Of a stretch of 62,003 nucleotides of DNA, positions 5,183-51,110 are shown piece by piece (position 1 is the first letter of the stretch; every line of letters begins with the position of its first letter). Origin of the DNA: a virus (lineage: Duplodnaviria; Caudoviricetes); IMG/VR virus record IMGVR_UViG_3300017754_001794, positions 1 to 62,003 of that record; one strand, 5' to 3'. A program made the position numbers and the translations under genes. Below the pieces are notes generated by a model. The model was not told where the DNA came from, did no database searches, and worked only from the letters and a program-made list of their open reading frames with translations.

Positions 5183-5584
5183 ATGCTGACGACAGCCATC
5201 TTGCAGCGCTGTGACATCCGCAGCCCAGGCCGCGCCGCCCAAAGCAGCGACGGGAACCTGCGCGTCTTTGCGACCGAGCAGGCCCTATTCGCAGCGCGTG
5301 GCCGGCCTGTGGTCATCCTCTGCCATAAGGAGGCCATGGTGAAGGCGTGGCAGAACAATACGCCCGGCGCTGCATGCTTTACCGTCGACTGCTGGCGCCA
5401 CATGCCTGAGCACGAGAAAGACCGGACGGCGCTGGTCTTGGTGGCCGACGTAGGGCCTAACCTGCTGCAGGCAATCGGCCCGTACCTGCATGCCATGCCG
5501 CAGGAGGTCTGGCTTATCAACAATCCACTGCCTACGCCTTTCCCGGCAGAATGGGCACACCCTTACAACGCAGAGGCAGCATGA
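5183..5584 (+). CDS. Hypothetical protein
   Basis: ATG at 5183 (MLTTAILQRC...); ATGA overlap with denV. Confidence 0.6.
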   Translation: MLTTAILQRCDIRSPGRAAQSSDGNLRVFATEQALFAARGRPVVILCHKEAMVKAWQNNTPGAACFTVDCWRHMPEHEKDRTALVLVADVGPNLLQAIGPYLHAMPQEVWLINNPLPTPFPAEWAHPYNAEAA

Positions 5585-6030
5585 CCCGAATTAACCTTGT
5601 CCCGCCCGAAGAGCTTACTGACCAGCACCTGTTCGCTGAGTTCCGTGAGATTAAGATGATCCCTAAGTCTCTGGCGCGCAGCTATGCCGCTGCGTTGCGC
5701 AACAATGACGGCAGCGAGTACAAGGCGCGCATTGCCGTGCTGGACAAGGTGCCTGCAGAGTTCTGCCTGGGCAAGGGGCATGTGAGCTTCTTCTATAACA
5801 AAGGCGTTTACTTAATCCAGCGGTATGCTCTTATCCGCCGCGAGCTAGATAAGCGCGGCGTGCGGTACAGCAAAGACAGCGCGTTCGACCCTGAGCTTAT
5901 GATGTGGGAACACCCTTGGCACGGGTTCTACACACCCCGCGAAGCCGACCTGAAGCTGGTGCGTGCCCGCATAGCCGAGCGCATTGCCTTCCGGCCTGGG
6001 TGGTATCGCCGTTACGGGGTGCCAGTATGA
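5581..6030 (+). CDS. denV: Pyrimidine dimer DNA glycosylase / endonuclease V
   Basis: MTRINLVPPEELTDQHLFAEFRE retains T4 EndoV Thr2 and Glu23; also LGKGHVSFFYNK and RIAERIAFRPGWYR. Confidence 0.93.
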   Translation: MTRINLVPPEELTDQHLFAEFREIKMIPKSLARSYAAALRNNDGSEYKARIAVLDKVPAEFCLGKGHVSFFYNKGVYLIQRYALIRRELDKRGVRYSKDSAFDPELMMWEHPWHGFYTPREADLKLVRARIAERIAFRPGWYRRYGVPV

Positions 6031-6422
6031 GCGCCCGTGGCCGGGTGTCGCGGCCCTACCAAGAGCCCCACACCTTCCGCCGCTCGCGCTGGGGTGCTTG
6101 GGGTACGCGAGTAAACCTCTACCAAGCGGCCTTAGACGCCCGTAAAGCCCGCTTGCGGCGCGAGGCAAGGCTCGCCCAGCCCGGAGGCGAAGCAAAGCCC
6201 CAGGTGACGCGCGTGGTGCATGTGAAGGCCGGGCAGTGGTACAGACTGGTTGACGAGCATGGCCGTGAGTACGGCGAACGCCACCAGAAGTCACCTCACC
6301 CGCTGCAAGGGCACTTGGCGAACACCCGCTGCCGTGTGTGCCAGCCCAAGCCCCTGAGCCTGTACGACGAACTCATTCTGCAACGTAACCGCCTGCACCG
6401 GCAGGCCAAGAGGCAACCATGA
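6027..6422 (+). CDS. Hypothetical basic protein
   Basis: ATGA overlaps on both sides; Arg-rich; CxxC. Confidence 0.55.
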   Translation: MSARGRVSRPYQEPHTFRRSRWGAWGTRVNLYQAALDARKARLRREARLAQPGGEAKPQVTRVVHVKAGQWYRLVDEHGREYGERHQKSPHPLQGHLANTRCRVCQPKPLSLYDELILQRNRLHRQAKRQP

Positions 6423-6694
6423 CAAAGATACTGACCCGCGCTGAGGCGCTGCATTGCCTAGACATTGCTGCCCTGAACGGCGCGTCGCCTGCCGCACCTG
6501 TGTGCGTGGTGGAAGTGCGCTTCTTGCGCACGGACAACACCATTGCTACGGTAAAAGAACACATCGCACCGGGGATTAGCGTATTGCACAAAGAGGACAC
6601 GCATCACCCTGTGCAAGAGCGCTATCTCGACTGGGAAGACTTCGCCCAGGCATACGGCCTCACGTCGGGCCACAATACGTCCACACCAACTTAG
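6419..6694 (+). CDS. Hypothetical protein (paralog of 3764..4018)
   Basis: GAGG RBS; shared motif pattern. Confidence 0.65.
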   Translation: MTKILTRAEALHCLDIAALNGASPAAPVCVVEVRFLRTDNTIATVKEHIAPGISVLHKEDTHHPVQERYLDWEDFAQAYGLTSGHNTSTPT

Positions 6695-6702
6695 GAGGCG
6701 CT

Positions 6703-7275
6703 ATGCCACATGATTTCGACGAGATGCGTCGGCAGGCAGCGGGCGAAGACATCGACTACAGCGCAACCGCGCATAAGGCGCAGGGCTGCACCTGGGAAGA
6801 GCTCTTGCAGTCAGCCAACCCGCCCAAGGTGCAGCCGGGTGGCAGTCTGCATGCTCAGGTTGTAATGACGCCGCACATTGCGACCTACCCGCTGCACGAA
6901 GAACAAATCGCACTTATGAAGTCGGGCCGCTTTGCACCGCGCCAGTTGGGCGGCCTGCCCAGCGGCACAACCACAGGCCGCACACCGTCTGCCCATACGC
7001 CACCCATGCACCAACTGCCCAGTGATAGCCCTGGGGTGGCCTCTGTACGCGCTGCCATGCACTCGCAGCGCCTGGGCCGCGCGTGGGATGACCACATCGC
7101 CACAGCCATGGCCCGGCTGACTGCTGTGCATGCCGACAAGTACATGCTGGAGCGCAACCCGGACGGTTCGTACTGCCTTGCTGTCGACGCGCCGTCTAGC
7201 TCGCATGGCTGGGCCACGGTACGCGACTACATGACGCGCGAGCAGACGGTCACTTTGATACTGGCGCTGTTGTAA
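6703..7275 (+). CDS. Hypothetical protein
   Basis: AGGAGG RBS; 190 aa. Confidence 0.65.
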   Translation: MPHDFDEMRRQAAGEDIDYSATAHKAQGCTWEELLQSANPPKVQPGGSLHAQVVMTPHIATYPLHEEQIALMKSGRFAPRQLGGLPSGTTTGRTPSAHTPPMHQLPSDSPGVASVRAAMHSQRLGRAWDDHIATAMARLTAVHADKYMLERNPDGSYCLAVDAPSSSHGWATVRDYMTREQTVTLILALL

Positions 7276-7291
7276 ACCAAGGAGCAAGAAG

Positions 7292-7552
7292 ATGGACTTT
7301 GACAAAGCAGCACAGGGCTTCGCCCTGATCGTGGTGTGCGTGGCGTTCTACGCACTGGGCTACATGCGGGCCAATGCGCGGCGCGACGAACGGCCCATGG
7401 TGGAATGCCCGGCTTGTGGTCAAACGCAATTGTCACAGCGGACGTGTAGCTGCAAGGTGTGCAGCGCCTTGTTCGACGAAGACTGGCAGGCCGAAGAACA
7501 TGCTACAAAGCGGCCTTACATCAACCGCAGACAACGCAGGAGATCCTTATGA
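7292..7552 (+). CDS. Membrane-anchored zinc-ribbon protein
   Basis: N-terminal hydrophobic helix; CPAC...CKVC. Confidence 0.6.
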   Translation: MDFDKAAQGFALIVVCVAFYALGYMRANARRDERPMVECPACGQTQLSQRTCSCKVCSALFDEDWQAEEHATKRPYINRRQRRRSL

Positions 7553-7878
7553 ACTCGTCTAACTTTGGCGGCATCGATCTGTTCCAGTTCGCCATCTACA
7601 TTGCCTTCTATTTGCTGGGCCACTGGCGCGGGCGCAAGACTGAACGGGCTTGCCACGCACCGCCACCGTCGGGCAACAACGGCGACGTAACCGGCGTGCC
7701 ACCGCAACAGCTTGGGAGCTGGTTTGCGACGCATGCCCCGCAGCCACGTCTATCATACTGCCGCGATTACGCAACGGGGTTGTATGGTTGGGCCGGCTAC
7801 GGCAAGAGCGGCGACGGGCACGCCACCCTCGCCGCCGCAGCCATTCACGCACACGCAACCACAGGAATGAAATCATGA
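7549..7878 (+). CDS. Hypothetical membrane-anchored protein
   Basis: AGGAG RBS; N-terminal hydrophobic helix; ATGA overlaps. Confidence 0.6.
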   Translation: MNSSNFGGIDLFQFAIYIAFYLLGHWRGRKTERACHAPPPSGNNGDVTGVPPQQLGSWFATHAPQPRLSYCRDYATGLYGWAGYGKSGDGHATLAAAAIHAHATTGMKS

Positions 7879-8594
7879 AAGAAACACGAGCGCATGCAGT
7901 GCGCGTACTGCACCTCACCATCGGCGACAAAGCAGTCGGCCTGTTCAAGGTCATGGGCGAATGGAATGGCCTGCTGGACGTACAGCACGTCAACAACAGC
8001 AATCTGCAGGGCATCATTGTGGACCCGTTCCCGAACGGTGTTGCCGCCGACGTGGAAAAGATGCTGAAGCTATTTGCCGGCAAGGTAGAGGAGGACCCAG
8101 GGCAGGTAATCAAGCGGATCAAGCTGTCCCCGGCACTGCTCGACAAGGTGCTGCCCGACAAGCCCGGCCCTACGCCCGACGCTGGCCCGTGGCCCTGGGT
8201 GGTGCATACCGCATGGCCCTACGCCTACCACAACCCGGCACCGCCCGCGACGCCAAAGGTCTGCACCGAATGCGGTGGCCCGGGACACTGGCCGCTGCCC
8301 TGTTTGCAGTGGTCGACCCTGCCGGCAGACGTGTTAGCGGAGCTGCGCGACATACGTGAGATTGACGTGCAGATGGAGTTCCGCAACAGCGCACGCGGCA
8401 CCATGGTTGACCGTGAGCCGGTGGGCGTGCATGTTCGCCATGTACCAACAGACAGCGAGGCTGCGCACTGGGGCGACAGCACCCGATACGCGAACTGGGT
8501 GGCGGCCTTGAAGCTGTTGCGCAAGAGTGTTGATGCTGCGCGCATGGCGAACGATGCTGCGCACAGCATGGGCGGCGACCGCAACGCCGATTGA
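7875..8594 (+). CDS. Multidomain protein: CCHC zinc knuckle plus degenerate release-factor (RF-1 domain)-like C-terminus
   Basis: CTECGGPGHWPLPC = Cx2Cx4Hx4C; VHVRHVPT-x14-N-xxx-AL has the same spacing as class I RF domain 3; no GGQ. Confidence 0.6.
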   Translation: MKETRAHAVRVLHLTIGDKAVGLFKVMGEWNGLLDVQHVNNSNLQGIIVDPFPNGVAADVEKMLKLFAGKVEEDPGQVIKRIKLSPALLDKVLPDKPGPTPDAGPWPWVVHTAWPYAYHNPAPPATPKVCTECGGPGHWPLPCLQWSTLPADVLAELRDIREIDVQMEFRNSARGTMVDREPVGVHVRHVPTDSEAAHWGDSTRYANWVAALKLLRKSVDAARMANDAAHSMGGDRNAD

Positions 8595-8651
8595 CATCAA
8601 GGTTAACGCTCGTATCCCACCGCTGTAAAATTGGCCCAGGAGGACCAACCT

Positions 8652-9977
8652 GTGCCAGATTTCCAGACAGACGACCAACGCGGTGCCCACGAATTCTTCC
8701 AGGAGTTCATGGCACTGCCAACCGATAGCCGCCCGCAGGCTGTCATCAAGGGTAATGCAGGCGTTGGCAAGACGTGGACGGTGGGCCACTGCATCGACCT
8801 GTACCTGCAAGAGAAGCCGAATGCCCGTGTGGTAATGGCAGCACCCACAAACAAGGCTGTGGACGTGCTGCGCGGCAAGGTGCGCACCCCAGGCGTGCGC
8901 TTCTGCACCATCGACAGCTTCCTGGGCTACCGCATCAAGCGCAACGACGACTGGAAGGTTGAGCGCACCAAGGCAAGCAAGAGCCCCAACAAGAGCGCTG
9001 ACGAGCCCGACCTGCTGGTGGTTGATGAAGGCTCCATGGTGAAGAAAGACTACGTGGAAGAGCTGGGCTGGACCGCCAAGCGCGTACTCTACTCCATGGA
9101 CCCGGCGCAGTTGCAGCCCATCAACGAAGACGTGTGCGCAGCCGCCAGCATCGAGCGCGCGTACACCATGACCGAGACGGTACGGTTCGCCATGGACAGC
9201 CCGGTCAACCGGCTGGCCTACCTGTTCCGCGACCGCGTCAACGACCGGGGCTTCTTTACCCTGCCCGACATACGGCAGGCTGTAGAAGGCATGGACAACC
9301 GCGTCACCTTCACCAACATGCGCAAGGTGCCTGAGTGGGCTATGGCCGCCGTGCGCAAGGGCCTGGACTGCCGCATACTGGCCTTCACGAACGCTGCAGT
9401 GTGGCAACACAACCAGACAATGCACAACCTGTGCTTCCCTAACGACAGCCTGTTCGGTGTTGGCGAGAAGGCGCTGGTGGCAGACACGTTTGAGATGCCT
9501 AATGAAGAGATGCTGCTAAACGGCGACATTGTAGAGGTGGTGGACTGCCAAGAGGCCGAACCAATCTGCGGCGTGCGCTGCTACGACGTCACGTTCAAGT
9601 ACACCAGCGCAGCAACGGTGAAGAACGCCGACGGCGAGTGGGACGATACCGAGGGCCTGCGTACCGTCAAGGTAGCGCTGTCAGAGTCTGAAGCGGTGCA
9701 GGTTCACAAGGACATCACCAACCGCATCTATGCTGCCCGTGACGCGGGTGACATCCACACCTACCAGACATTGCTGGAGCAGCGCCGCCCGCTGAACAAG
9801 CTGGCCCCGCTGCGCCACAGCTACAGCACCACCATCCACAAGTCGCAGGGCAGCACGTACGACGTCGGCTTTGTGGACTTTGCAGACGTGTACAAGGCCC
9901 GCGACATGCGCGCACGTTTGTTTTACGTCGGCGCCACACGCACCAGCAATTGGCTTACATTCGGTGTCCAGTCTTAA
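8652..9977 (+). CDS. Dda/RecD-like SF1B helicase
   Basis: GNAGVGKT, APTNKA, VVDEGSM, DPAQLQP, TIHKSQGSTYD, YVGATR; GTG start after AGGAGGA. Confidence 0.9.
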   Translation: MPDFQTDDQRGAHEFFQEFMALPTDSRPQAVIKGNAGVGKTWTVGHCIDLYLQEKPNARVVMAAPTNKAVDVLRGKVRTPGVRFCTIDSFLGYRIKRNDDWKVERTKASKSPNKSADEPDLLVVDEGSMVKKDYVEELGWTAKRVLYSMDPAQLQPINEDVCAAASIERAYTMTETVRFAMDSPVNRLAYLFRDRVNDRGFFTLPDIRQAVEGMDNRVTFTNMRKVPEWAMAAVRKGLDCRILAFTNAAVWQHNQTMHNLCFPNDSLFGVGEKALVADTFEMPNEEMLLNGDIVEVVDCQEAEPICGVRCYDVTFKYTSAATVKNADGEWDDTEGLRTVKVALSESEAVQVHKDITNRIYAARDAGDIHTYQTLLEQRRPLNKLAPLRHSYSTTIHKSQGSTYDVGFVDFADVYKARDMRARLFYVGATRTSNWLTFGVQS

Positions 9978-9994
9978 CCACAAGGAGCTTCACT

Positions 9995-10948
9995 ATGCTT
10001 GCATCAACCACACCTGACGCGCGCCTGCGCCAAGTGCTCACCGTTATTCAGAACTATCTGCCACCCGATGGCGGTACGGCCGATGAGGCACTCAACAAGA
10101 TCATTGAACTGGTTGACCCGTGGCCCGCCTTCCCCAGCGACCCCAGCACCTACCAAGACCGAGCGACCGCTTGGTGCAAGGAGTGCGTCGGCGAAGACGC
10201 CTACCTGATTAAGGTGCGCTGCCACCGCTTCTTGGAAGAGGCGCTGGAGCTGGTGCAAGCCCTGGGCAGTAGCAAGGCCGCAGCGCATCGGTTGGTGGAG
10301 TACGTGTACAGCCGGCCAGCCGGCGAGGTGGAGCAAGAGATTGGCGGCACTGTGACAACGCTGGCCGTGCTGTGCAGTGCTGCGGGCTGTGACATGCTGC
10401 AGGCGGGCGAGAAAGAATACAAGCGCGTCAACACGCCCGAAATGATTGCCAAGATCCGCGCCAAGCACAACAGCAAGCCGGACATGGATGACAACCCGCT
10501 ACCGGTGGCCGTTGGCAACATCGAGCCGAACAACGACGAAGTTATCTGCCCCAACTGCACCACCCAGTTCAGGGCCATACCCGTCAACGTGCAGGCCATG
10601 CTGATAGAGTCGGACTACGAACCGCCCTTCACGTCTACACCGCCGCGCCTGTACCCCGTGTCTGTGCTGCGCGAGGCGCTGGCGCGCAGCAAGCTGGTGC
10701 CGCTGCCGTACCGCAACGAGATCGCGTCCGAGTTTGAACACTTGTGGCACATGCACAAGGCCCGCTTGCCGGCAAACGACGTCAAGAGTTACCTCAGGTA
10801 CGTGGCGCAGCGTGAAGCCCTGTCCTGCGCCGGCCTGTACAGCTACGCGCCGACGTCACTGGAAGAGGCCGTCAACTTTGAACCGCACGAGTGGGTCCTC
10901 AACGCCATGGCAACCGCTGTGCATGAGCTGGGCCGGGTGCCGCAATGA
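9995..10948 (+). CDS. Mosaic protein with a MazG-like all-alpha NTP pyrophosphohydrolase domain and a CxxC module
   Basis: RFLEEALELVQA...EQEIGG pattern; VICPNC; AAGGAG RBS. Confidence 0.55.
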   Translation: MLASTTPDARLRQVLTVIQNYLPPDGGTADEALNKIIELVDPWPAFPSDPSTYQDRATAWCKECVGEDAYLIKVRCHRFLEEALELVQALGSSKAAAHRLVEYVYSRPAGEVEQEIGGTVTTLAVLCSAAGCDMLQAGEKEYKRVNTPEMIAKIRAKHNSKPDMDDNPLPVAVGNIEPNNDEVICPNCTTQFRAIPVNVQAMLIESDYEPPFTSTPPRLYPVSVLREALARSKLVPLPYRNEIASEFEHLWHMHKARLPANDVKSYLRYVAQREALSCAGLYSYAPTSLEEAVNFEPHEWVLNAMATAVHELGRVPQ

Positions 10949-11163
10949 GCAACGAGCCGACCAAGAAGGTGATGACGCTGGAGGCGGCCTTGCACAGGAA
11001 TCTTGTGGCTATACGCCTCAGCAAGTCGCTGCAGGGTCGCGTCATGGAAGCGTTCCGCGCCGCACGCACAGAGATCGCAATCCATCGCGGCCACCCCGTG
11101 CCCGTCCGAGTAATGCCCAAGGTGAAACATGAACCTCCAAAAGAGCCACAAGAAGGCCGCTGA
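10945..11163 (+). CDS. Hypothetical protein
   Basis: ATGA overlap; 72 aa. Confidence 0.5.
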   Translation: MSNEPTKKVMTLEAALHRNLVAIRLSKSLQGRVMEAFRAARTEIAIHRGHPVPVRVMPKVKHEPPKEPQEGR

Positions 11164-11509
11164 CGCGCTGCTGGCGGCCTACCCCGCCAGCAAGTGGGGC
11201 GACGCTGCCCAGGACGCTATGGGGCGCCTTGCCGAGGCCCTCAGCTACGACGTCGCCCGGCACATGGCCGAAATGTTCCTGGGGCGCCCGCTGCCGCGTG
11301 GTGTGCTGCGCTGGCCGACGTGCTGGGACGGGCGCACGTTGGAAATAGCAGTGGATGACGTAACCGCTATGACCATGGCTGCAGCCGTAGAAGAGGGCGA
11401 GGCGGTTAGCATGGAGCGCTGGGGCTACGCCGGGCTGTGGACGTTGTCTGACACCCGCAAACTGCTGATGACACCACGCGCGTACATCCTTACCTACCGC
11501 AGGCAGTAA
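11129..11509 (+). CDS. Hypothetical protein
   Basis: AAGGTG RBS; 126 aa. Confidence 0.6.
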   Translation: MNLQKSHKKAADALLAAYPASKWGDAAQDAMGRLAEALSYDVARHMAEMFLGRPLPRGVLRWPTCWDGRTLEIAVDDVTAMTMAAAVEEGEAVSMERWGYAGLWTLSDTRKLLMTPRAYILTYRRQ

Positions 11510-11511
11510 CC

Positions 11512-11826
11512 ATGACAAAGATGTACGGCACCGGCATTAAGACGCGCCGTACTGGCCTGTCTGCCTACACCATGACCATGCGCATGCAGCGCGTGCGTGA
11601 GCTGCTACTAGACATGACATACGGCGCAACGGTTGCTGAGATAGCGGCCATGCACGACGAAAAGACGCGCCGCGTTGAAAGCGTGCTGCACCGTATGTCT
11701 GACGCATACATCGACCATTGGCAGCCAACGCCAGAAAACACCTGGGAGGCCGTCTGGTGCTTGGCAGTAACGCCAGCCCACTGCCCCAGGCCACCGCAAC
11801 CACCAAACAGGACACATTCTAAATGA
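11512..11826 (+). CDS. Putative winged-helix DNA-binding protein
   Basis: VRELLLDMTYGATVAEIAA...VESVLHRMSDAYIDHW. Confidence 0.55.
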   Translation: MTKMYGTGIKTRRTGLSAYTMTMRMQRVRELLLDMTYGATVAEIAAMHDEKTRRVESVLHRMSDAYIDHWQPTPENTWEAVWCLAVTPAHCPRPPQPPNRTHSK

Positions 11827-12299
11827 CAGTTATTGCATGGGACGGCACCACGCTTGCCACCGACAGCCGCGCCACATACGGCAACCAGAACACCACTGTT
11901 GCTAAGATCTGGACGGTTGGCAACTACGCTATCGCCGGCTGCGGCACAAACCCGGCATATGACGAACTCGTGCATTGGGCAAAGATGAAGTGCGCGAAAA
12001 CGCCCGTGGACTTCCCGGCAAGCGCGAAGGACAGCGGCGCTGCTGTGGTCATAGCAGACATGCAAAGCAAGGAGCTTACGCGCTACGATTCGTCCGAACA
12101 CGGCACCCTTATCTTAGACCCGCTGCACGCTGCTGGCACGGGCGGTGACGTAGCCCTGGGCGCCATGGCAAGCGGCGCCAGCGCGCAGACAGCCGTTCGC
12201 ATAGCTGCCCGCTTCAACTGCGCCTGCGGCCTGCCGGTGCAGTACGTGGCCTGCACCGGGGCCACCGGCAAAACGCTCAAAGTGTTGCAAGACATCTAA
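11823..12299 (+). CDS. HslV/proteasome-beta-like Ntn peptidase
   Basis: N-terminal (M)TVIAWDG...LATDSRAT and AAGTGGDVALGAM motifs. Confidence 0.8.
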   Translation: MTVIAWDGTTLATDSRATYGNQNTTVAKIWTVGNYAIAGCGTNPAYDELVHWAKMKCAKTPVDFPASAKDSGAAVVIADMQSKELTRYDSSEHGTLILDPLHAAGTGGDVALGAMASGASAQTAVRIAARFNCACGLPVQYVACTGATGKTLKVLQDI

Positions 12300-47340: not shown

Positions 47341-48273
47341 TCAAAAGAGCTGTTGCACTGCATGGCAGTCTAACCGGCCTTGGCGTGCATCCATTTGTCG
47401 ATTAATTTCTACGTTCAGCTTCATGTAGCCGAGCATGTTGCAGGCCGCCCGGCTTTGGTACACGGTGGACAGACGTTCATAGTTGAAACCTTCTGCGGCC
47501 AGCTCTTGCTCTACGTGCTGCCGCACGATCTCCGGCATGCTGCTCAAGTGCTGATTGGCCGTGTGCCGGGCAGGCGACAGGGCCGACACGGCAATGGGGC
47601 CGTGCTCCACGGTGTACACGCTGCCGAAGCTGGCGGCCTGGATCCAAGAGGAGCTGTCAACGCTGTGCCATGGGTAGCGCTCCATCAGCGACACTGTGGT
47701 CACACCGAACGCATGTACCTTCAGCTTAGGGCGGCCACTGCCGTCCACGAGGTAGCGGTTCCAGATGCGGTCCAACCACTGCATCACGTCCTCTGCCTTG
47801 GTGCGCACCATGCCGCCGATTGTGATGTACGGGTAGCGCGACACGTACCACTCCAGGTATCGTTCGTCCTCGCCAAAGTGGAAGCAAGGCAGCGGCGTCG
47901 CGCCCTTGCTTTCCATGTAGATCTGGTTCTCCCAGGTCAGCTTCGGGTCGCCAATGCCGTCAAGTACGGAGGCCATGACCACATTGTCCTCTATGCGCAG
48001 GATGTCGCGGTTGCGCAGGATGTAGTCGCAGTAAGCGTTGATGTCAATGTCCACGCCCAGGCTTTTCGCAGAGAAGGCGCCCGAGTCAAGGAACACCTTG
48101 CCGCCACTGGACCGCATCTCGTCTACAAAACGCTGTTTGCCGACGTAGTGGTACGACTCCAGGATATACGGCAGGTTGTCAACAATCTGTGCTTCCCGCT
48201 CGTTGAAATGCGGGTACTGCTTCTGACTGCTGCGATACTGGTTGGTATAAATGGCGGCTAGATAGACGTTCAC
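47341..48273 (-). CDS. dpdA: DpdA-like 7-deazaguanine DNA transglycosylase (TGT fold)
   Basis: FLDSGAFS, LDGIGD, PCFHFGE, IGGMV, VHAFG, SVDSSSW; adjacent to the preQ0 synthesis genes. Confidence 0.88.
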   Translation of the reverse strand: MNVYLAAIYTNQYRSSQKQYPHFNEREAQIVDNLPYILESYHYVGKQRFVDEMRSSGGKVFLDSGAFSAKSLGVDIDINAYCDYILRNRDILRIEDNVVMASVLDGIGDPKLTWENQIYMESKGATPLPCFHFGEDERYLEWYVSRYPYITIGGMVRTKAEDVMQWLDRIWNRYLVDGSGRPKLKVHAFGVTTVSLMERYPWHSVDSSSWIQAASFGSVYTVEHGPIAVSALSPARHTANQHLSSMPEIVRQHVEQELAAEGFNYERLSTVYQSRAACNMLGYMKLNVEINRQMDARQGRLDCHAVQQLF

Positions 48274-48515
48274 GCTTGGTCTCGCTCTGCTGCAAGTTCG
48301 CAGCGGTGGCAGTGGCCCCAGCACACCCAGTCACCGACCTGCATGCAAAAGCCGCCGCAGGCAGGGCAAGGGTCTGACATAGGCAAGAACATATCGATAA
48401 CCGGCCCGCGTTCCAAGTCCAGTATTGGCACAGGCGTTTGCAGCGGCTGTGCCCCGTTTGTCTGGTCTAGCGTGCTTGAGCTGGTTGCCAGCAAGCGGCT
48501 TAGGTCTAGTGCCAT
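48270..48515 (-). CDS. Small Cys-rich (zinc-ribbon) protein coupled to dpdA
   Basis: CAGGAG RBS; CPAC...C...CWGHCHRC; GTGA overlap with dpdA. Confidence 0.55.
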   Translation of the reverse strand: MALDLSRLLATSSSTLDQTNGAQPLQTPVPILDLERGPVIDMFLPMSDPCPACGGFCMQVGDWVCWGHCHRCELAAERDQA

Positions 48516-48531
48516 GGTTGCTCCTGTGGTG

Positions 48532-48610
48532 GGGCCGCGTGCTCCGTCCATGCTAAGGGCACTCGCTGGAATGCGACTTCATGAATCAGCACCGCCGCAA
48601 CACGCGGCCC
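48532..48610 (-). promoter_or_regulatory. Structured intergenic RNA element (nested long hairpin)
   Basis: Outer stem GGGCCGCGTG/CACGCGGCCC, inner stems UGCUGA/UUAGCA and UCGC/GCGA. Confidence 0.5.
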
Positions 48611-48616
48611 GAACTG

Positions 48617-49342
48617 TTAAACGCCTGCTATGTCCAGGGCGCGGAAGATATCTTCGCGACGCTGGTGCGAGTACGGGGCGGCCTTAGCCTCCCATACCTT
48701 GCGGTCGTGTACCCCGGCAGGATGGCACTCCCAGTGCTGCACCTCCCAGGCGTCGCGCTGCAGGGCCACTGTAAGGGCCACCCAGCGCTTAAAGCAGCTA
48801 GAGCAGCGCCCGCAGTGGTGTGCGCCCCCATCATAGCAGCTAACCGACCGCAAGAGGCTTTGCAGGGGCTTACCGCGCTCCAGGTAGCGGCGCACAAGGT
48901 CGGTCTTGGACGTGTGGCGGAATGGCGTCTCGATAGTAAAGCTCCTGCCTTCAGTCCAATACTGGCGGCGGTGGCTTATGTTCAAGACGGCTTCCATGGC
49001 GTGGCAGAATTCCTCACTCTTGTCGCTGTTGATCTCGTCAGCCACCACACCCAGGTAGATGCTATCTGCGTGCTGGGCCGCGCACAAGATCAGCTCGGCA
49101 TTACGGAAGGGTATGATGCCCGACTCATGTTCGTAGGCTTGCAGGTTGGTGGCCTCCATCTTCACGAACGGCGCTTTGGCTTGGTCGGCCACGTACCGGG
49201 CCGCCAAGTATTCTTTCCCAGCGTACTTCTGTCCGGCATTCACAAACACATGCACAGCGCCGGCCAGCTCGGGCTCGTGGGCCAGCAAGAAGCTATCCAT
49301 GCCGCCGCTGCTCAACAGGGCCTTCTGATAGATTGTGGTCAT
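48617..49342 (-). CDS. queC: 7-cyano-7-deazaguanine synthase QueC-like (divergent)
   Basis: SGGMDS PP-loop, IPFRN, SCY...CGRCSSCFKR zinc site. Confidence 0.85.
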   Translation of the reverse strand: MTTIYQKALLSSGGMDSFLLAHEPELAGAVHVFVNAGQKYAGKEYLAARYVADQAKAPFVKMEATNLQAYEHESGIIPFRNAELILCAAQHADSIYLGVVADEINSDKSEEFCHAMEAVLNISHRRQYWTEGRSFTIETPFRHTSKTDLVRRYLERGKPLQSLLRSVSCYDGGAHHCGRCSSCFKRWVALTVALQRDAWEVQHWECHPAGVHDRKVWEAKAAPYSHQRREDIFRALDIAGV

Positions 49343-49343
49343 C

Positions 49344-49952
49344 TTAGTTGCTCCGTGCCAGTTGCAAGAATTCGCTGCGGGTGGTGCCGTCCTTGAAGCA
49401 GCCGCGCAGCGCATGCGTTTCGGTCATGCTGTTGCTGTGCTGCACGCCCCGGCTCTCGACGCACATATGCCGCGCAGAGATCCACACGCCGACGCCCTTG
49501 GGCTGGACCAGTTCATAGAACGACTCGGCGATTTGGTTGGTCAGCCGCTCCTGCACTTGCAGGCGCCGCGCAAACACGTCAGCCAGCCGGTCCAGCTTGG
49601 ACAGCCCCACCACCTTCCCGTCGGGGATGTAGCCGATGACAGCGGTGCCGATGATGTCGGCAAGGTGGTGCTCGCACTTGCTGTAGATGGGGATGCCTTT
49701 GCGCACCACCATTTCATCGCAGCCCTCAGCACCGTCGCTGAACATCTTGAGTACGTCCTTGGGGTTGATGCTGTAGCCGCTGCACCAGTGCTTCCACGCT
49801 TTGACCACACGCAGCGGCGTTTCCTGCAGGCCCTCGCGGTGCGGGTCCTCGCCCACGAACTGCAGCACACCGCGGATGAGCTCTGCGGGGGACACGCGCA
49901 CGTCGCGCCCGTCTATGGTCTGCACGGTTGGGCAGTGCAAAGGGCTGCTCAT
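49344..49952 (-). CDS. folE: GTP cyclohydrolase I
   Basis: REGLQETPLRV, CEHH, GLSKL.R, RRLQVQERLT, HMC...RG. Confidence 0.96.
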   Translation of the reverse strand: MSSPLHCPTVQTIDGRDVRVSPAELIRGVLQFVGEDPHREGLQETPLRVVKAWKHWCSGYSINPKDVLKMFSDGAEGCDEMVVRKGIPIYSKCEHHLADIIGTAVIGYIPDGKVVGLSKLDRLADVFARRLQVQERLTNQIAESFYELVQPKGVGVWISARHMCVESRGVQHSNSMTETHALRGCFKDGTTRSEFLQLARSN

Positions 49953-50404
49953 ACTGCGTCCTTCTCGTAGATGGCGCTGTTGGCACCGTGCTCGCGCACC
50001 TCAACACTCTGCACCCACACGCGCGGCACATGGCCGTTATCAACCAGCCACGCCTCGGCGGACTTGAAGATGAGCTTCGCAAAAGCCTCGCAGCCGGTGG
50101 CTTCCACGATGCGCACGTCTGCCAAATCAAAGCCAGCCAGCACGCCAAGCTCATCGACATGCGGGTCGTCTTGGGCGATCAGCAGCGTGTGGTCAAACAT
50201 GGCCTTCAGGCTGTCTTTGAACGTGCCCAGGCCACCAAAGTCGATAACCCAGTTGCGCTCGTCCAACTCGTTGGCGCCGAACTTGATTGTGACGGCCAGC
50301 GCATAGCCGTGCAGAAAACGGCAATGACTGGTCGCCTTGTGCTGACGGAAGCATGCAGACAGGCCCACGTCGTGGCCGTAGGTTTTGGTAGAGAAATGAG
50401 GCAC
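49949..50404 (-). CDS. queD: 6-carboxytetrahydropterin synthase
   Basis: SHCRFLHGY, WVIDFG, FDH, VEVREH..NSA.Y. Confidence 0.92.
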   Translation of the reverse strand: MPHFSTKTYGHDVGLSACFRQHKATSHCRFLHGYALAVTIKFGANELDERNWVIDFGGLGTFKDSLKAMFDHTLLIAQDDPHVDELGVLAGFDLADVRIVEATGCEAFAKLIFKSAEAWLVDNGHVPRVWVQSVEVREHGANSAIYEKDAV

Positions 50405-50405
50405 G

Positions 50406-51110
50406 TTATTCTACTCCCAGGATCTTGTGCAGTTGAAGTTGAAGGGTATAGCCGTGCTTCATGCACGACGCCATTGCCGCTTGCAAGTTTAAGGCGTTTT
50501 GCGCCTCGTCTTGCGTGTCGGCTGGCTGCACATAGATATGTCGGCGGCTTCGGACGGAAGGCAGGCCAGAAGGCCGGGCTACACGACTGATGACATGGTT
50601 GCCCAGGGCTTGCACCGGCAGGCCGTCTGTCGGGTCCACGCTGCGGCTGTCCAGCACGTACTTCCATGCAATGGCCTGCGATGCAATGCGGGGCTGCACT
50701 GTGTCTGTCTTGGGGCTGACCACAATGTCGCAGTCGTCACTCGTCAGGCCGACAGGCATGGGCAGCGTGCCGTTCGTTTCAATCTGCACGTCCATGCCAC
50801 GGTGCAGCAGTTCAAACACCAGCTCGCGCAGTTGGCCGGGCTGGCGCATGGGTTCGCCACCAGTGATGACGACGAGCGGCGTGGGGCTTTCAAAGCACTT
50901 GCGTGCCACATGCTGCGCGCTCATCAGCTGGCGCCCCTGCGTGTACTCCGTGTCACACATGGGGCATTGCAGGTTGCAGCCGGCAAGGCGGACGAAGGTG
51001 GCCGGGCGGCCCGCGTGTGGGCCTTCGCCTTGTATGGTGTAGAAGATGCCGTGGATGTCCAGCAGCTCTTCGTTCAGGCGACGGAGCTTTTCGATAGGTT
51101 GGGAATTCAT
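50406..51110 (-). CDS. queE: 7-carboxy-7-deazaguanine synthase (radical SAM)
   Basis: FYTIQGEG, FVRLAGCNLQCPMCDT, ITGGEP, IETNGT, SPK, QLHK. Confidence 0.96.
   Translation of the reverse strand: MNSQPIEKLRRLNEELLDIHGIFYTIQGEGPHAGRPATFVRLAGCNLQCPMCDTEYTQGRQLMSAQHVARKCFESPTPLVVITGGEPMRQPGQLRELVFELLHRGMDVQIETNGTLPMPVGLTSDDCDIVVSPKTDTVQPRIASQAIAWKYVLDSRSVDPTDGLPVQALGNHVISRVARPSGLPSVRSRRHIYVQPADTQDEAQNALNLQAAMASCMKHGYTLQLQLHKILGVE

Follow-up and report, generated by a model that had tools for sequence, protein, structure and literature searches.

Domain 3 of the release factors (RFs) is defined by its GGQ motif; the two glycines of this motif are required for release activity, and its glutamine is the residue on which PrmC acts. 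Retroviral-type CCHC knuckles bind single-stranded nucleic acid. Among the proteins closest to the one described here, ArfB has been reported to bind ribosomes through a basic C-terminal tail that is required for this binding (PMC3950681), and Balon, a hibernation factor, is described as occupying both the A site and the peptidyl-transferase centre while releasing no peptide (PMC10901736). In a further report, loss of the GGQ motif is described for the plant protein mtRF2b and for a tick ICT1-like protein, both of which are predicted to be non-hydrolytic (PMC3472500). Here, we describe a gene located at positions 7875-8594 (plus strand) of the phage record IMGVR_UViG_3300017754_001794, the whole of which, 62,003 bp, was analysed and is called the window. 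Its 239-residue product is named P0001 (P0002, P0004 and so on designate other proteins compared with it). Comparisons through intermediate phage sequences make it very probable that the C-terminal ~76 residues of P0001 are a true homologue of RF domain 3 (Pfam RF-1), and they settle an assignment that direct comparison leaves weak; the GGQ motif is absent, and the domain follows a predicted CCHC knuckle and an N-terminal domain of no known family.

The resemblance to RFs begins with the string DVQMEFRNSARGTMVDREPVGVHVRHVPT-x14-NWVAALKLL, which is present in P0001 exactly as the first-pass annotation of the window had read it. The motif H189-x-P191-T192 is followed by 14 residues and then by N207. 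E. coli RF1 has an identical spacing here, and HMMER aligned residues 147-227 of P0001 with residues 204-286 of E. coli RF1 without a gap between HxPT and N. In the same alignment R174-G175-T176 falls opposite GGQ, which bears out the annotation's remark that GGQ is replaced by RGT, and the GGQ tripeptide is found nowhere in P0001.

When P0001 is compared directly with known proteins, the matches are weak yet convergent on RF1 domain 3. In a search of the PDB sequences, the best 13 of the 16 matches listed are RF1 (E = 0.061-0.53, residues 147-227), and the other three are CCHC knuckle proteins. The family phrog_20323, "RF-1 domain", matches P0001 weakly in the library-wide scan (E = 0.012, 16.4 bits); in the scan of the window its only match lies at nucleotides 8376-8537, with E = 1.1e-4 per genome and 18.3 bits. 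Similarly, the NCBIfam prfA model matches the last 94 residues of P0001 (E = 0.049), and the NCBIfam ArfB model gives no match to the protein. A hidden Markov model (HMM) built from 20 RF-1 domains that carry GGQ (4 from E. coli and 16 viral) ranks the P0001 open reading frame (ORF) first among 900 six-frame segments of the window, with E = 0.045 and the next best at 0.34. Residues 144-239 score 11.6 bits against this model, a value reached by none of 5000 shuffles (maximum 8.0).

The decisive evidence comes from bridge sequences. From 80 IMG/VR loci gathered through the large terminase, the 23 longest records (27-66 kb) were searched in six frames with P0001, and one of them, a 48.9-kb record of a related phage, yielded a 184-residue ORF product, P0004. 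P0004 passes the RF-1 profile with 55.8 bits against PF00472 (cut-off 35; E = 5.3e-15) and 67 bits against phrog_20323 (E = 1.8e-18), and it also lacks GGQ (…YRSPAQSQMLNAGNSAVRITHLPSG…). BLASTP aligns P0001 with P0004 over 101 residues at 25% identity (32.3 bits, E = 2e-6). Used as a query, P0004 retrieved 858 proteins, the majority of which share only its N-terminal domain (phrog_2452 type); ten high-coverage relatives were fetched, seven of them with an RF-like C-terminal domain, and GGQ is found in none of the eight domains obtained when P0004 is included. An HMM of these eight GGQ-less domains, built without P0001, matches P0001 with 26.3 bits (E = 3.3e-10). With this model P0001 also ranks ahead of the rest of the window (E = 2.8e-7 among the 900 segments; next best 4.5); in the shuffle test P0001 scores 28.7 against a maximum of 15.2, with none of 5000 shuffles reaching its score. 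In hhalign, P0001 and the GGQ-less domains are paired with a probability of 89.6% (E = 1.9e-6). In addition, a profile termed A2, made of residues 120-239 of P0001 and the eight GGQ-less domains, retrieves PF00472-carrying RF1/RF2 fragments from a database of 5.8 billion proteins at E = 1e-18 to 1e-15; this profile has invariant V, H, P, N and A residues. A second, independent bridge, L142, is the product of a 155-residue GGQ-less ORF on a 388-kb viral contig, and it aligns with P0001 over 64 residues at 31% identity (33.1 bits, E = 8e-7).

The N-terminal domain of P0004 deserves a separate remark. This phrog_2452-type domain (motif KKLLVAGGRGAGKD; the 858 matches mentioned above) is very common in phages and is fused to interchangeable C-terminal modules; in P0004-P0008, P0012, P0042, P0052, P0105 and P0115 these modules include, among others, GGQ-less RF-1 domains and, in P0105, a module rich in Cys. 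A conserved tail, …(S/G)RD(S/A/G)LQP, closes the sequence in six of the ten proteins fetched.

The absence of GGQ is not peculiar to P0001. When the RF-like part of P0004 was used as a tblastn query, 145 phage records were matched, and four annotated isolate genomes were opened. The proteins concerned, ORF037 of Pseudomonas phage 73, p144 of Acinetobacter phage Ac42, gp006 of phiPsa347 and gp44 of LPPA15, are all labelled as release factor or peptidyl-tRNA hydrolase, and GGQ is found in none of the four. IMG/VR was then scanned with a GGQ-independent motif, [GAC][VI][RI][IV][THK]H[ILK]P[ST]G, and GGQ was sought in the 28 residues preceding each match. The scan gave 57 loci and 56 ORFs containing the motif, 35 with GGQ and 21 without (29 and 19, respectively, of the 48 unique ORFs), counts that are biased to conservative members because P0001 itself, with HVPTD, would not match the motif. 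Across the GGQ-less phage proteins the loop equivalent to GGQ is hypervariable. The two glycines are kept in some members, as GGG, GGF, GGM or GGR (P0005, P0012, P0042, L146 and L126), and neither glycine nor a conserved substitute is found at this position in P0004, ORF037 of phage 73 or the LPPA15 protein. Judged from these sequences, GGQ-less RF-1 domains are common in phages, and P0001 is no one-off. Since GGQ is absent from all four isolate proteins and from 19 of the 48 unique viral ORFs, the labels "peptide chain release factor" and "peptidyl-tRNA hydrolase" on such phage copies are probably wrong. No study of GGQ-less phage RF-1 domains was found by full-text search of the literature, which leaves room for a mention in supplementary files.

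The IMG/VR scan also brought up tiny viral RF-1 ORFs of 68-76 residues in which GGQ is kept (e.g. …RGGQHVG…; L131, L138, L144, L149, L153, L157-L159 and L163) and in which there is no room for a ribosome-anchoring part. A tblastn search of phages with ArfB, by comparison, mostly found full-length RF1/RF2 on unverified fragments and was set aside as not useful.

Structure prediction gives a compatible picture. In the ESM Atlas model of P0001 (mean predicted local distance difference test, pLDDT, 0.52), residues 146-224 align to RF-1 clusters with a template modelling (TM) score of 0.61, and the feature search of the same resource points to small viral clusters, partly PF00472, with scores of 0.77-0.78 that serve as leads only. 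AlphaFold was also guided by an alignment of 64 rows, namely residues 120-239 of P0001, the eight phage proteins and 55 RF-1 proteins. The resulting model has a pLDDT of 78.9 and a predicted TM score (pTM) of 0.68, and its elements follow the order strand, loop, strand, strand, long helix; the pLDDT is 84-96 in the core, about 62 in the GGQ-equivalent loop and about 53 in the knuckle. Its best PDB matches in Foldseek are domain 3 of RF2 and RF1, with a root-mean-square deviation (rmsd) of 1.8-2.3 Å over 75 columns and E from 3e-4. The structural comparison proposed in the first-pass annotation was thus made with a model that was itself guided by RF-1 sequences; the model is consistent with RF-1 homology and is no proof of it.

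The gene that encodes this domain runs from ATG 7875 to TGA 8592-8594. Its start codon shares the letters ATGA with the stop of the upstream ORF 7549-7878, and AGGA is found 9-12 nucleotides (nt) 5' of the start. Codon-usage log-odds were trained on 18 confirmed genes of the same phage, which themselves score 0.22-0.65; the P0001 frame scores +0.32 bits per codon and the other five frames -0.18 to -1.0. Because the in-frame 5' extension at 7650-7874 scores -0.35, ATG 7875 is the likely start. Judged by these signals, the ORF looks like a genuine gene, and it would be an accessory one. The coordinates of the gene, its parts and the features mentioned below are collected in Table 1.

Table 1. 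Coordinates of the P0001 gene, its predicted parts and other features of the window.
Feature	Position in window	Strand	Basis or remark
Whole gene, P0001 (239 residues + stop)	7875..8594	+	ORF listing, codon usage, ribosome-binding site
N-terminal domain, residues 1-95, no known family	7875..8159	+	library searches
Pro/Trp/Tyr-rich linker, residues 96-129	8160..8261	+	10 Pro and 3 Trp in 34 residues; model pLDDT about 53
Predicted CCHC knuckle CTECGGPGHWPLPC, residues 130-143 (C130, C133, H138, C143)	8262..8303	+	regular expression, shuffles
RF-1 (release-factor domain 3) homologue, very probable, residues about 147-222	8313..8540	+	PDB, PHROG, HMMs, model
R174-G175-T176 at the catalytic GGQ position	8394..8402	+	HMMER alignment to E. 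coli RF1; model loop pLDDT about 62
Acidic C-terminal tail, residues 223-239	8541..8591	+	2 Lys + Arg against 3 Asp + Glu
DenV-type glycosylase	5551-6030		upstream of P0001 gene; Pfam, PHROG
Dda-like helicase	8631-9977		begins 37 nt downstream of P0001 gene; Pfam, PHROG
Queuine tRNA-ribosyltransferase/DpdA-like	47341-48324	-	7-deazaguanine set
GTP cyclohydrolase	49344-49952	-	7-deazaguanine set
QueD-like	49949-50404	-	7-deazaguanine set
QueE-like	50406-51110	-	7-deazaguanine set

Because they overlap or abut, the ORFs 7292-7552, 7549-7878 and 7875-8594 look co-translated. The first two of these, directly upstream on the plus strand, have a similar hydrophobic helix at their starts (…VAFYALGYMRANARRDER… and …IAFYLLGHWRGRKTER…), and ORF 7292-7552 contains a zinc-ribbon-like CxxC…CxCxxC stretch with weak Pfam zinc-ribbon matches.

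As a whole, P0001 stands alone. No full-length relative was found among about 15 billion proteins, and the protein is the sole member of its 90% cluster. In a word-based search of 5.8 billion clusters it matched only itself, and an exhaustive phmmer search of 1.84 billion representatives returned P0001 together with P0002. P0002 was rejected as a homologue: it has 1295 residues with four near-identical eukaryote-like (RhoGAP-like) repeats, over which its score is summed and thereby inflated, and an error of assembly or of gene prediction is the probable origin of this sequence. The matches of a tblastn search of P0001 against 50,697 phage records, all with E >= 1 and antisense to annotated mycobacteriophage genes, were likewise rejected. 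Scans of IMG/VR with P0001 and with the neighbouring Dda-like helicase found no relatives, and Pfam, NCBIfam and PADLOC gave nothing significant for the whole protein (PADLOC, 0 matches).

The N-terminal residues 1-95 have no match in Pfam, PHROG or NCBIfam, and their structural neighbours in the ESM Atlas are all below the bar for naming. The Pfam search of P0001 gave no match to the PCRF domain (PF03462), and hhalign of the N-terminal 128 residues against RF-1 profiles gave a probability below 1%. Within P0001, residues 34-56 (7974-8042) resemble residues 163-185 (8361-8429), with 9 of 23 residues identical and a BLASTP E of 0.007; a weak colinear second match accompanies this similarity, and the N-terminal domain also contains AVRVLHLTIG and QHVN, which echo RF-1 motifs. 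For a degenerate duplication of the RF-like domain in the N-terminus, this is only a hint, given the hhalign probability just cited.

The knuckle announced by the first-pass annotation is present with the exact spacing Cx2Cx4Hx4C, and it contains all three cysteines of P0001. When P0001 was shuffled 200,000 times, this pattern arose once, and there is no second match in the 94,810 six-frame residues of the window. Similarity to known knuckles is weak. The score against Pfam zf-CCHC (PF00098), to which the annotation had looked for support, is 11.9-13.2 bits and thus stays under the 20.8-bit gathering cut-off, and the PDB sequences yield weak matches to retroviral nucleocapsid knuckles (E = 0.64-4.3). 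The CCHC pattern was found in none of the 56 viral RF-like ORFs, and the search for homologues of the same architecture, also proposed in the annotation, gave none. The fusion of a knuckle and this N-terminal domain to the RF-like domain is therefore, as far as the compared sequences go, particular to P0001; the knuckle is present in no relative seen.

Based on the results presented above, the following mechanism may be proposed. Since the GGQ loop is replaced by A-R-G-T in P0001, canonical peptide release is not expected, and the loss of GGQ together with the free variation of the loop among the phage proteins argues against canonical hydrolysis. The invariant core, on the other hand (V, H, P, N and A in profile A2), points to selection for the fold. 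The RF-1-like domain may thus have been retained to bind the site normally held by RF domain 3, i.e. the A site and peptidyl-transferase centre of the 50S subunit, or the acceptor end of the P-site tRNA. Because ArfB needs its tail to bind ribosomes, a bare domain 3 probably needs another anchor; in P0001, the knuckle and the N-terminal domain could take this role in place of the codon-reading domains. A protein bound in this way without hydrolysing would hold on to ribosomes or act as a competitor of RF1, RF2 or ArfB, and in the infected cell the outcome could be a modulation of termination, of ribosome rescue or of the pool of available ribosomes. Taken as a whole, the statement that P0001 is an accessory RF-1 homologue without GGQ acting as a non-hydrolytic ribosome-site binder is our preferred reading, held tentatively and with somewhat less than even confidence; a ribosome- or RNA-directed mechanism, considered by itself, is put at the same tentative level or slightly lower. 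Zinc binding, ribosome binding and an effect on translation are inferred. A wider version is conceivable, in which phages of many lineages use dead copies of domain 3 that dock in the A site and peptidyl-transferase centre as viral "Balon-like" factors, parking or protecting host ribosomes or blocking the release or rescue mediated by RF1, RF2, ArfB or PrfH, and of which P0001 would be a variant anchored by a knuckle and a new N-terminal domain. Blocked release or rescue could, for example, blunt abortive-infection responses that act through translation. We consider this version doubtful.

Several observations weigh against the preferred reading. As to homology, PF00472 has no match at E <= 10 in the whole of P0001, in its C-terminal fragments or in the six-frame window (gathering score 35 bits), so that the profile match whose absence the first-pass annotation had named as a refutation formally failed, and the assignment was rescued only by the bridge sequences. 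Likewise, hhalign of P0001 against four E. coli RF-1 domains gives a probability of 8%, the single-sequence AlphaFold model (pLDDT 36.5) is uninformative, and the alignment-guided model is not independent because an RF-1-rich alignment guided it. As to ribosome or RNA binding, the RF-like domain is acidic, with an isoelectric point (pI) of 5.9 that is untypical of an rRNA binder, P0001 has no basic C-terminal tail such as that of ArfB, and the knuckle contains neither Lys nor Arg, which calls for caution over zinc and nucleic-acid binding. Free variation of the GGQ-equivalent loop argues against a conserved contact with the peptidyl-transferase centre. Finally, the domain is sporadic in the terminase-defined lineage, where a search with profile A2 detects it in 2 of 36 records, the very two that had contributed to the profile, and phrog_20323 matches 2 of 24 records. 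The initial picture of an RNA-binding knuckle joined to a GGQ-less RF-1 homologue has thus survived in part: the homology stands through the bridges, and the RNA-binding component is weakened by the pI and the knuckle composition.

The same acidity and lack of basic residues would suit protein binding better than RNA binding, and the alternative that fares best is that the RF-like domain acts as a scaffold or decoy, binding a host protein that recognises domain 3, such as the methyltransferase PrmC, or a defence protein, and not the ribosome. This would fit a GGQ loop that varies freely around a kept core of sheet and helix, as well as a sporadic, accessory distribution like that of counter-defence genes; in addition, RF1 domain 3 is bound by PrmC in PDB entry 2b3t. 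However, the glutamine that is PrmC's substrate is absent from P0001, and no family of defence or anti-defence proteins is matched (PADLOC again). This alternative appears rather unlikely.

Somewhat less probable still is an accessory role in nucleic-acid metabolism, in which single-stranded RNA or DNA would be the ligand of the knuckle and the RF-like fold, and the protein would act with the neighbouring repair and replication genes. The P0001 gene lies between those of the DenV-type glycosylase and the Dda-like helicase, and the P0004 gene, too, is found ~1.3 kb downstream of a DenV gene, beside genes for a deoxynucleoside monophosphate (dNMP) phosphatase and RusA and upstream of lysis and terminase genes. 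The binding of single-stranded nucleic acid by retroviral-type knuckles would agree with such a role, and a GGQ-less RF2 relative of plants reportedly stabilises a transcript. However, the basic residues on which such knuckles rely are missing from that of P0001, little can be concluded from gene neighbourhood in the early regions of phages, and the helicase is not kept beside P0004.

Could the gene be what decay has left of a captured fragment of a release factor, or a functionless ORF? The lost catalytic motif, the sporadic distribution and the failure to find a whole-protein homologue would be expected of such a remnant, but an intact frame of 239 codons that is translationally coupled to the gene before it and uses codons as the phage does would not, nor would the placement of all three cysteines in a perfect knuckle, and GGQ-less RF-1 domains with intact cores persist in many unrelated phages; decay is thus very unlikely. 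Residual peptidyl-tRNA hydrolase activity through a non-canonical loop is even less probable. The P0001 loop differs from that of RF1 by at most one residue in length (<=1), and the five phage proteins listed above keep two glycines; against this, two glycines are needed for release, R-G-T offers one glycine and no glutamine, and P0004, ORF037 of phage 73 and the LPPA15 protein have neither glycine nor a conserved substitute. That the RF-1 resemblance is due to chance and the domain has another fold, as the missing direct PF00472 match and the uninformative single-sequence model might suggest, is hardly credible in view of the E = 3.3e-10 and 0 of 5000 shuffles for the GGQ-less HMM, the two independent pairwise bridges at E about 1e-6 (P0004 and L142) and the retrieval of RF1/RF2 at E = 1e-18 by a profile containing P0001.

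The phage that carries the P0001 gene is a lytic NP1-like siphophage. Its 62,003-bp record has direct terminal repeats and 62% G+C, and its completeness is rated 100%. In the PHROG scans, the siphophage genes (small and large terminase, portal, major head protein, tape measure, endolysin) lie on the plus strand, and a replication block with a family-A polymerase, a helicase, a Cas4-type exonuclease, Sak4, a ligase, ThyX and MazG lies on the minus strand. The major head protein has 72% identity to those of Pseudomonas phages NP1 and PaMx25, Xanthomonas phage DoCa3 and Variovorax phage VPv62. No tRNA genes were found in the window. The minus-strand block also contains a 7-deazaguanine set (47341-51110, PHROG scan), which suggests that the phage DNA contains a modified guanine. 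The P0001 gene itself belongs to a plus-strand block of small genes. Downstream of it, a homologue of the HslV-family peptidase is encoded at 11823-12299 (plus strand; phrog_1040, E = 2.2e-26; no Pfam match at E <= 0.001). The only DNA-level similarity of the region 6000-12000 to known phages lies at nucleotides 10222-10467, within ORF 9950-10948 (plus strand), which matches phrog_14118 and phrog_8593; over ~245 nt it has 67-69% identity to hypothetical genes of Ralstonia phage RSL1 and Burkholderia phage BgManors32, and there is no synteny with the latter.

These findings point to a recurrent viral use of a ribosome-directed fold that has so far been unstudied. If the phage proteins bind the ribosome without releasing the peptide, they would form a new class of phage translation modulators. 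What is new here is the architecture with a knuckle and the N-terminal domain; the phage RF-1 domain proteins as such are known and misannotated. Because P0001 is a single orphan metagenomic sequence, the wider family, e.g. ORF037 of Pseudomonas phage 73 or p144 of Acinetobacter phage Ac42, offers the better experimental entry.

Compared with retroviral-type CCHC proteins (PF00098), P0001 has the exact Cx2Cx4Hx4C pattern, in which one Gly follows the second Cys and another precedes the His, but its knuckle scores below the Pfam cut-off, has no basic residues and is only predicted to bind zinc. With the phage RF-1 proteins of PHROG 20323 and 3122, P0001 has in common the core V..H.P[ST]... N...A...L; these proteins are stand-alone (64 residues) or have other extensions, whereas P0001 has a knuckle and HVPTD in place of H.P[ST]G. 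With the homologous domain of RF1 and RF2, P0001 can be aligned without gaps between the beta-strand that precedes the loop and helix alpha7, with an identical HxPT-x14-N spacing; P0001 differs from them in having no GGQ, no PCRF domain, no codon-recognition domain or motif (PxT or SPF) and an unrelated N-terminal domain. ArfB (YaeJ), ICT1 and PrfH resemble P0001 in plan, since they too join domain 3, without codon-reading domains, to another anchoring part; they keep GGQ, however, and hydrolyse peptidyl-tRNA, whereas P0001 lacks GGQ, has its extra parts on the N-terminal side and ends in an acidic tail, in place of the basic one that in ArfB and ICT1 comes after the GGQ domain and binds the empty mRNA channel. 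Balon has three domains and is a member of the archaeo-eukaryotic RF family (aeRF1) and not of the bacterial one (RF-1); the other two precedents, mtRF2b and the tick protein, are cellular or organellar. None of the three is viral, and none has a knuckle. What Balon, mtRF2b and the tick ICT1-like protein share with P0001 is the release-factor fold, kept after the loss of GGQ.

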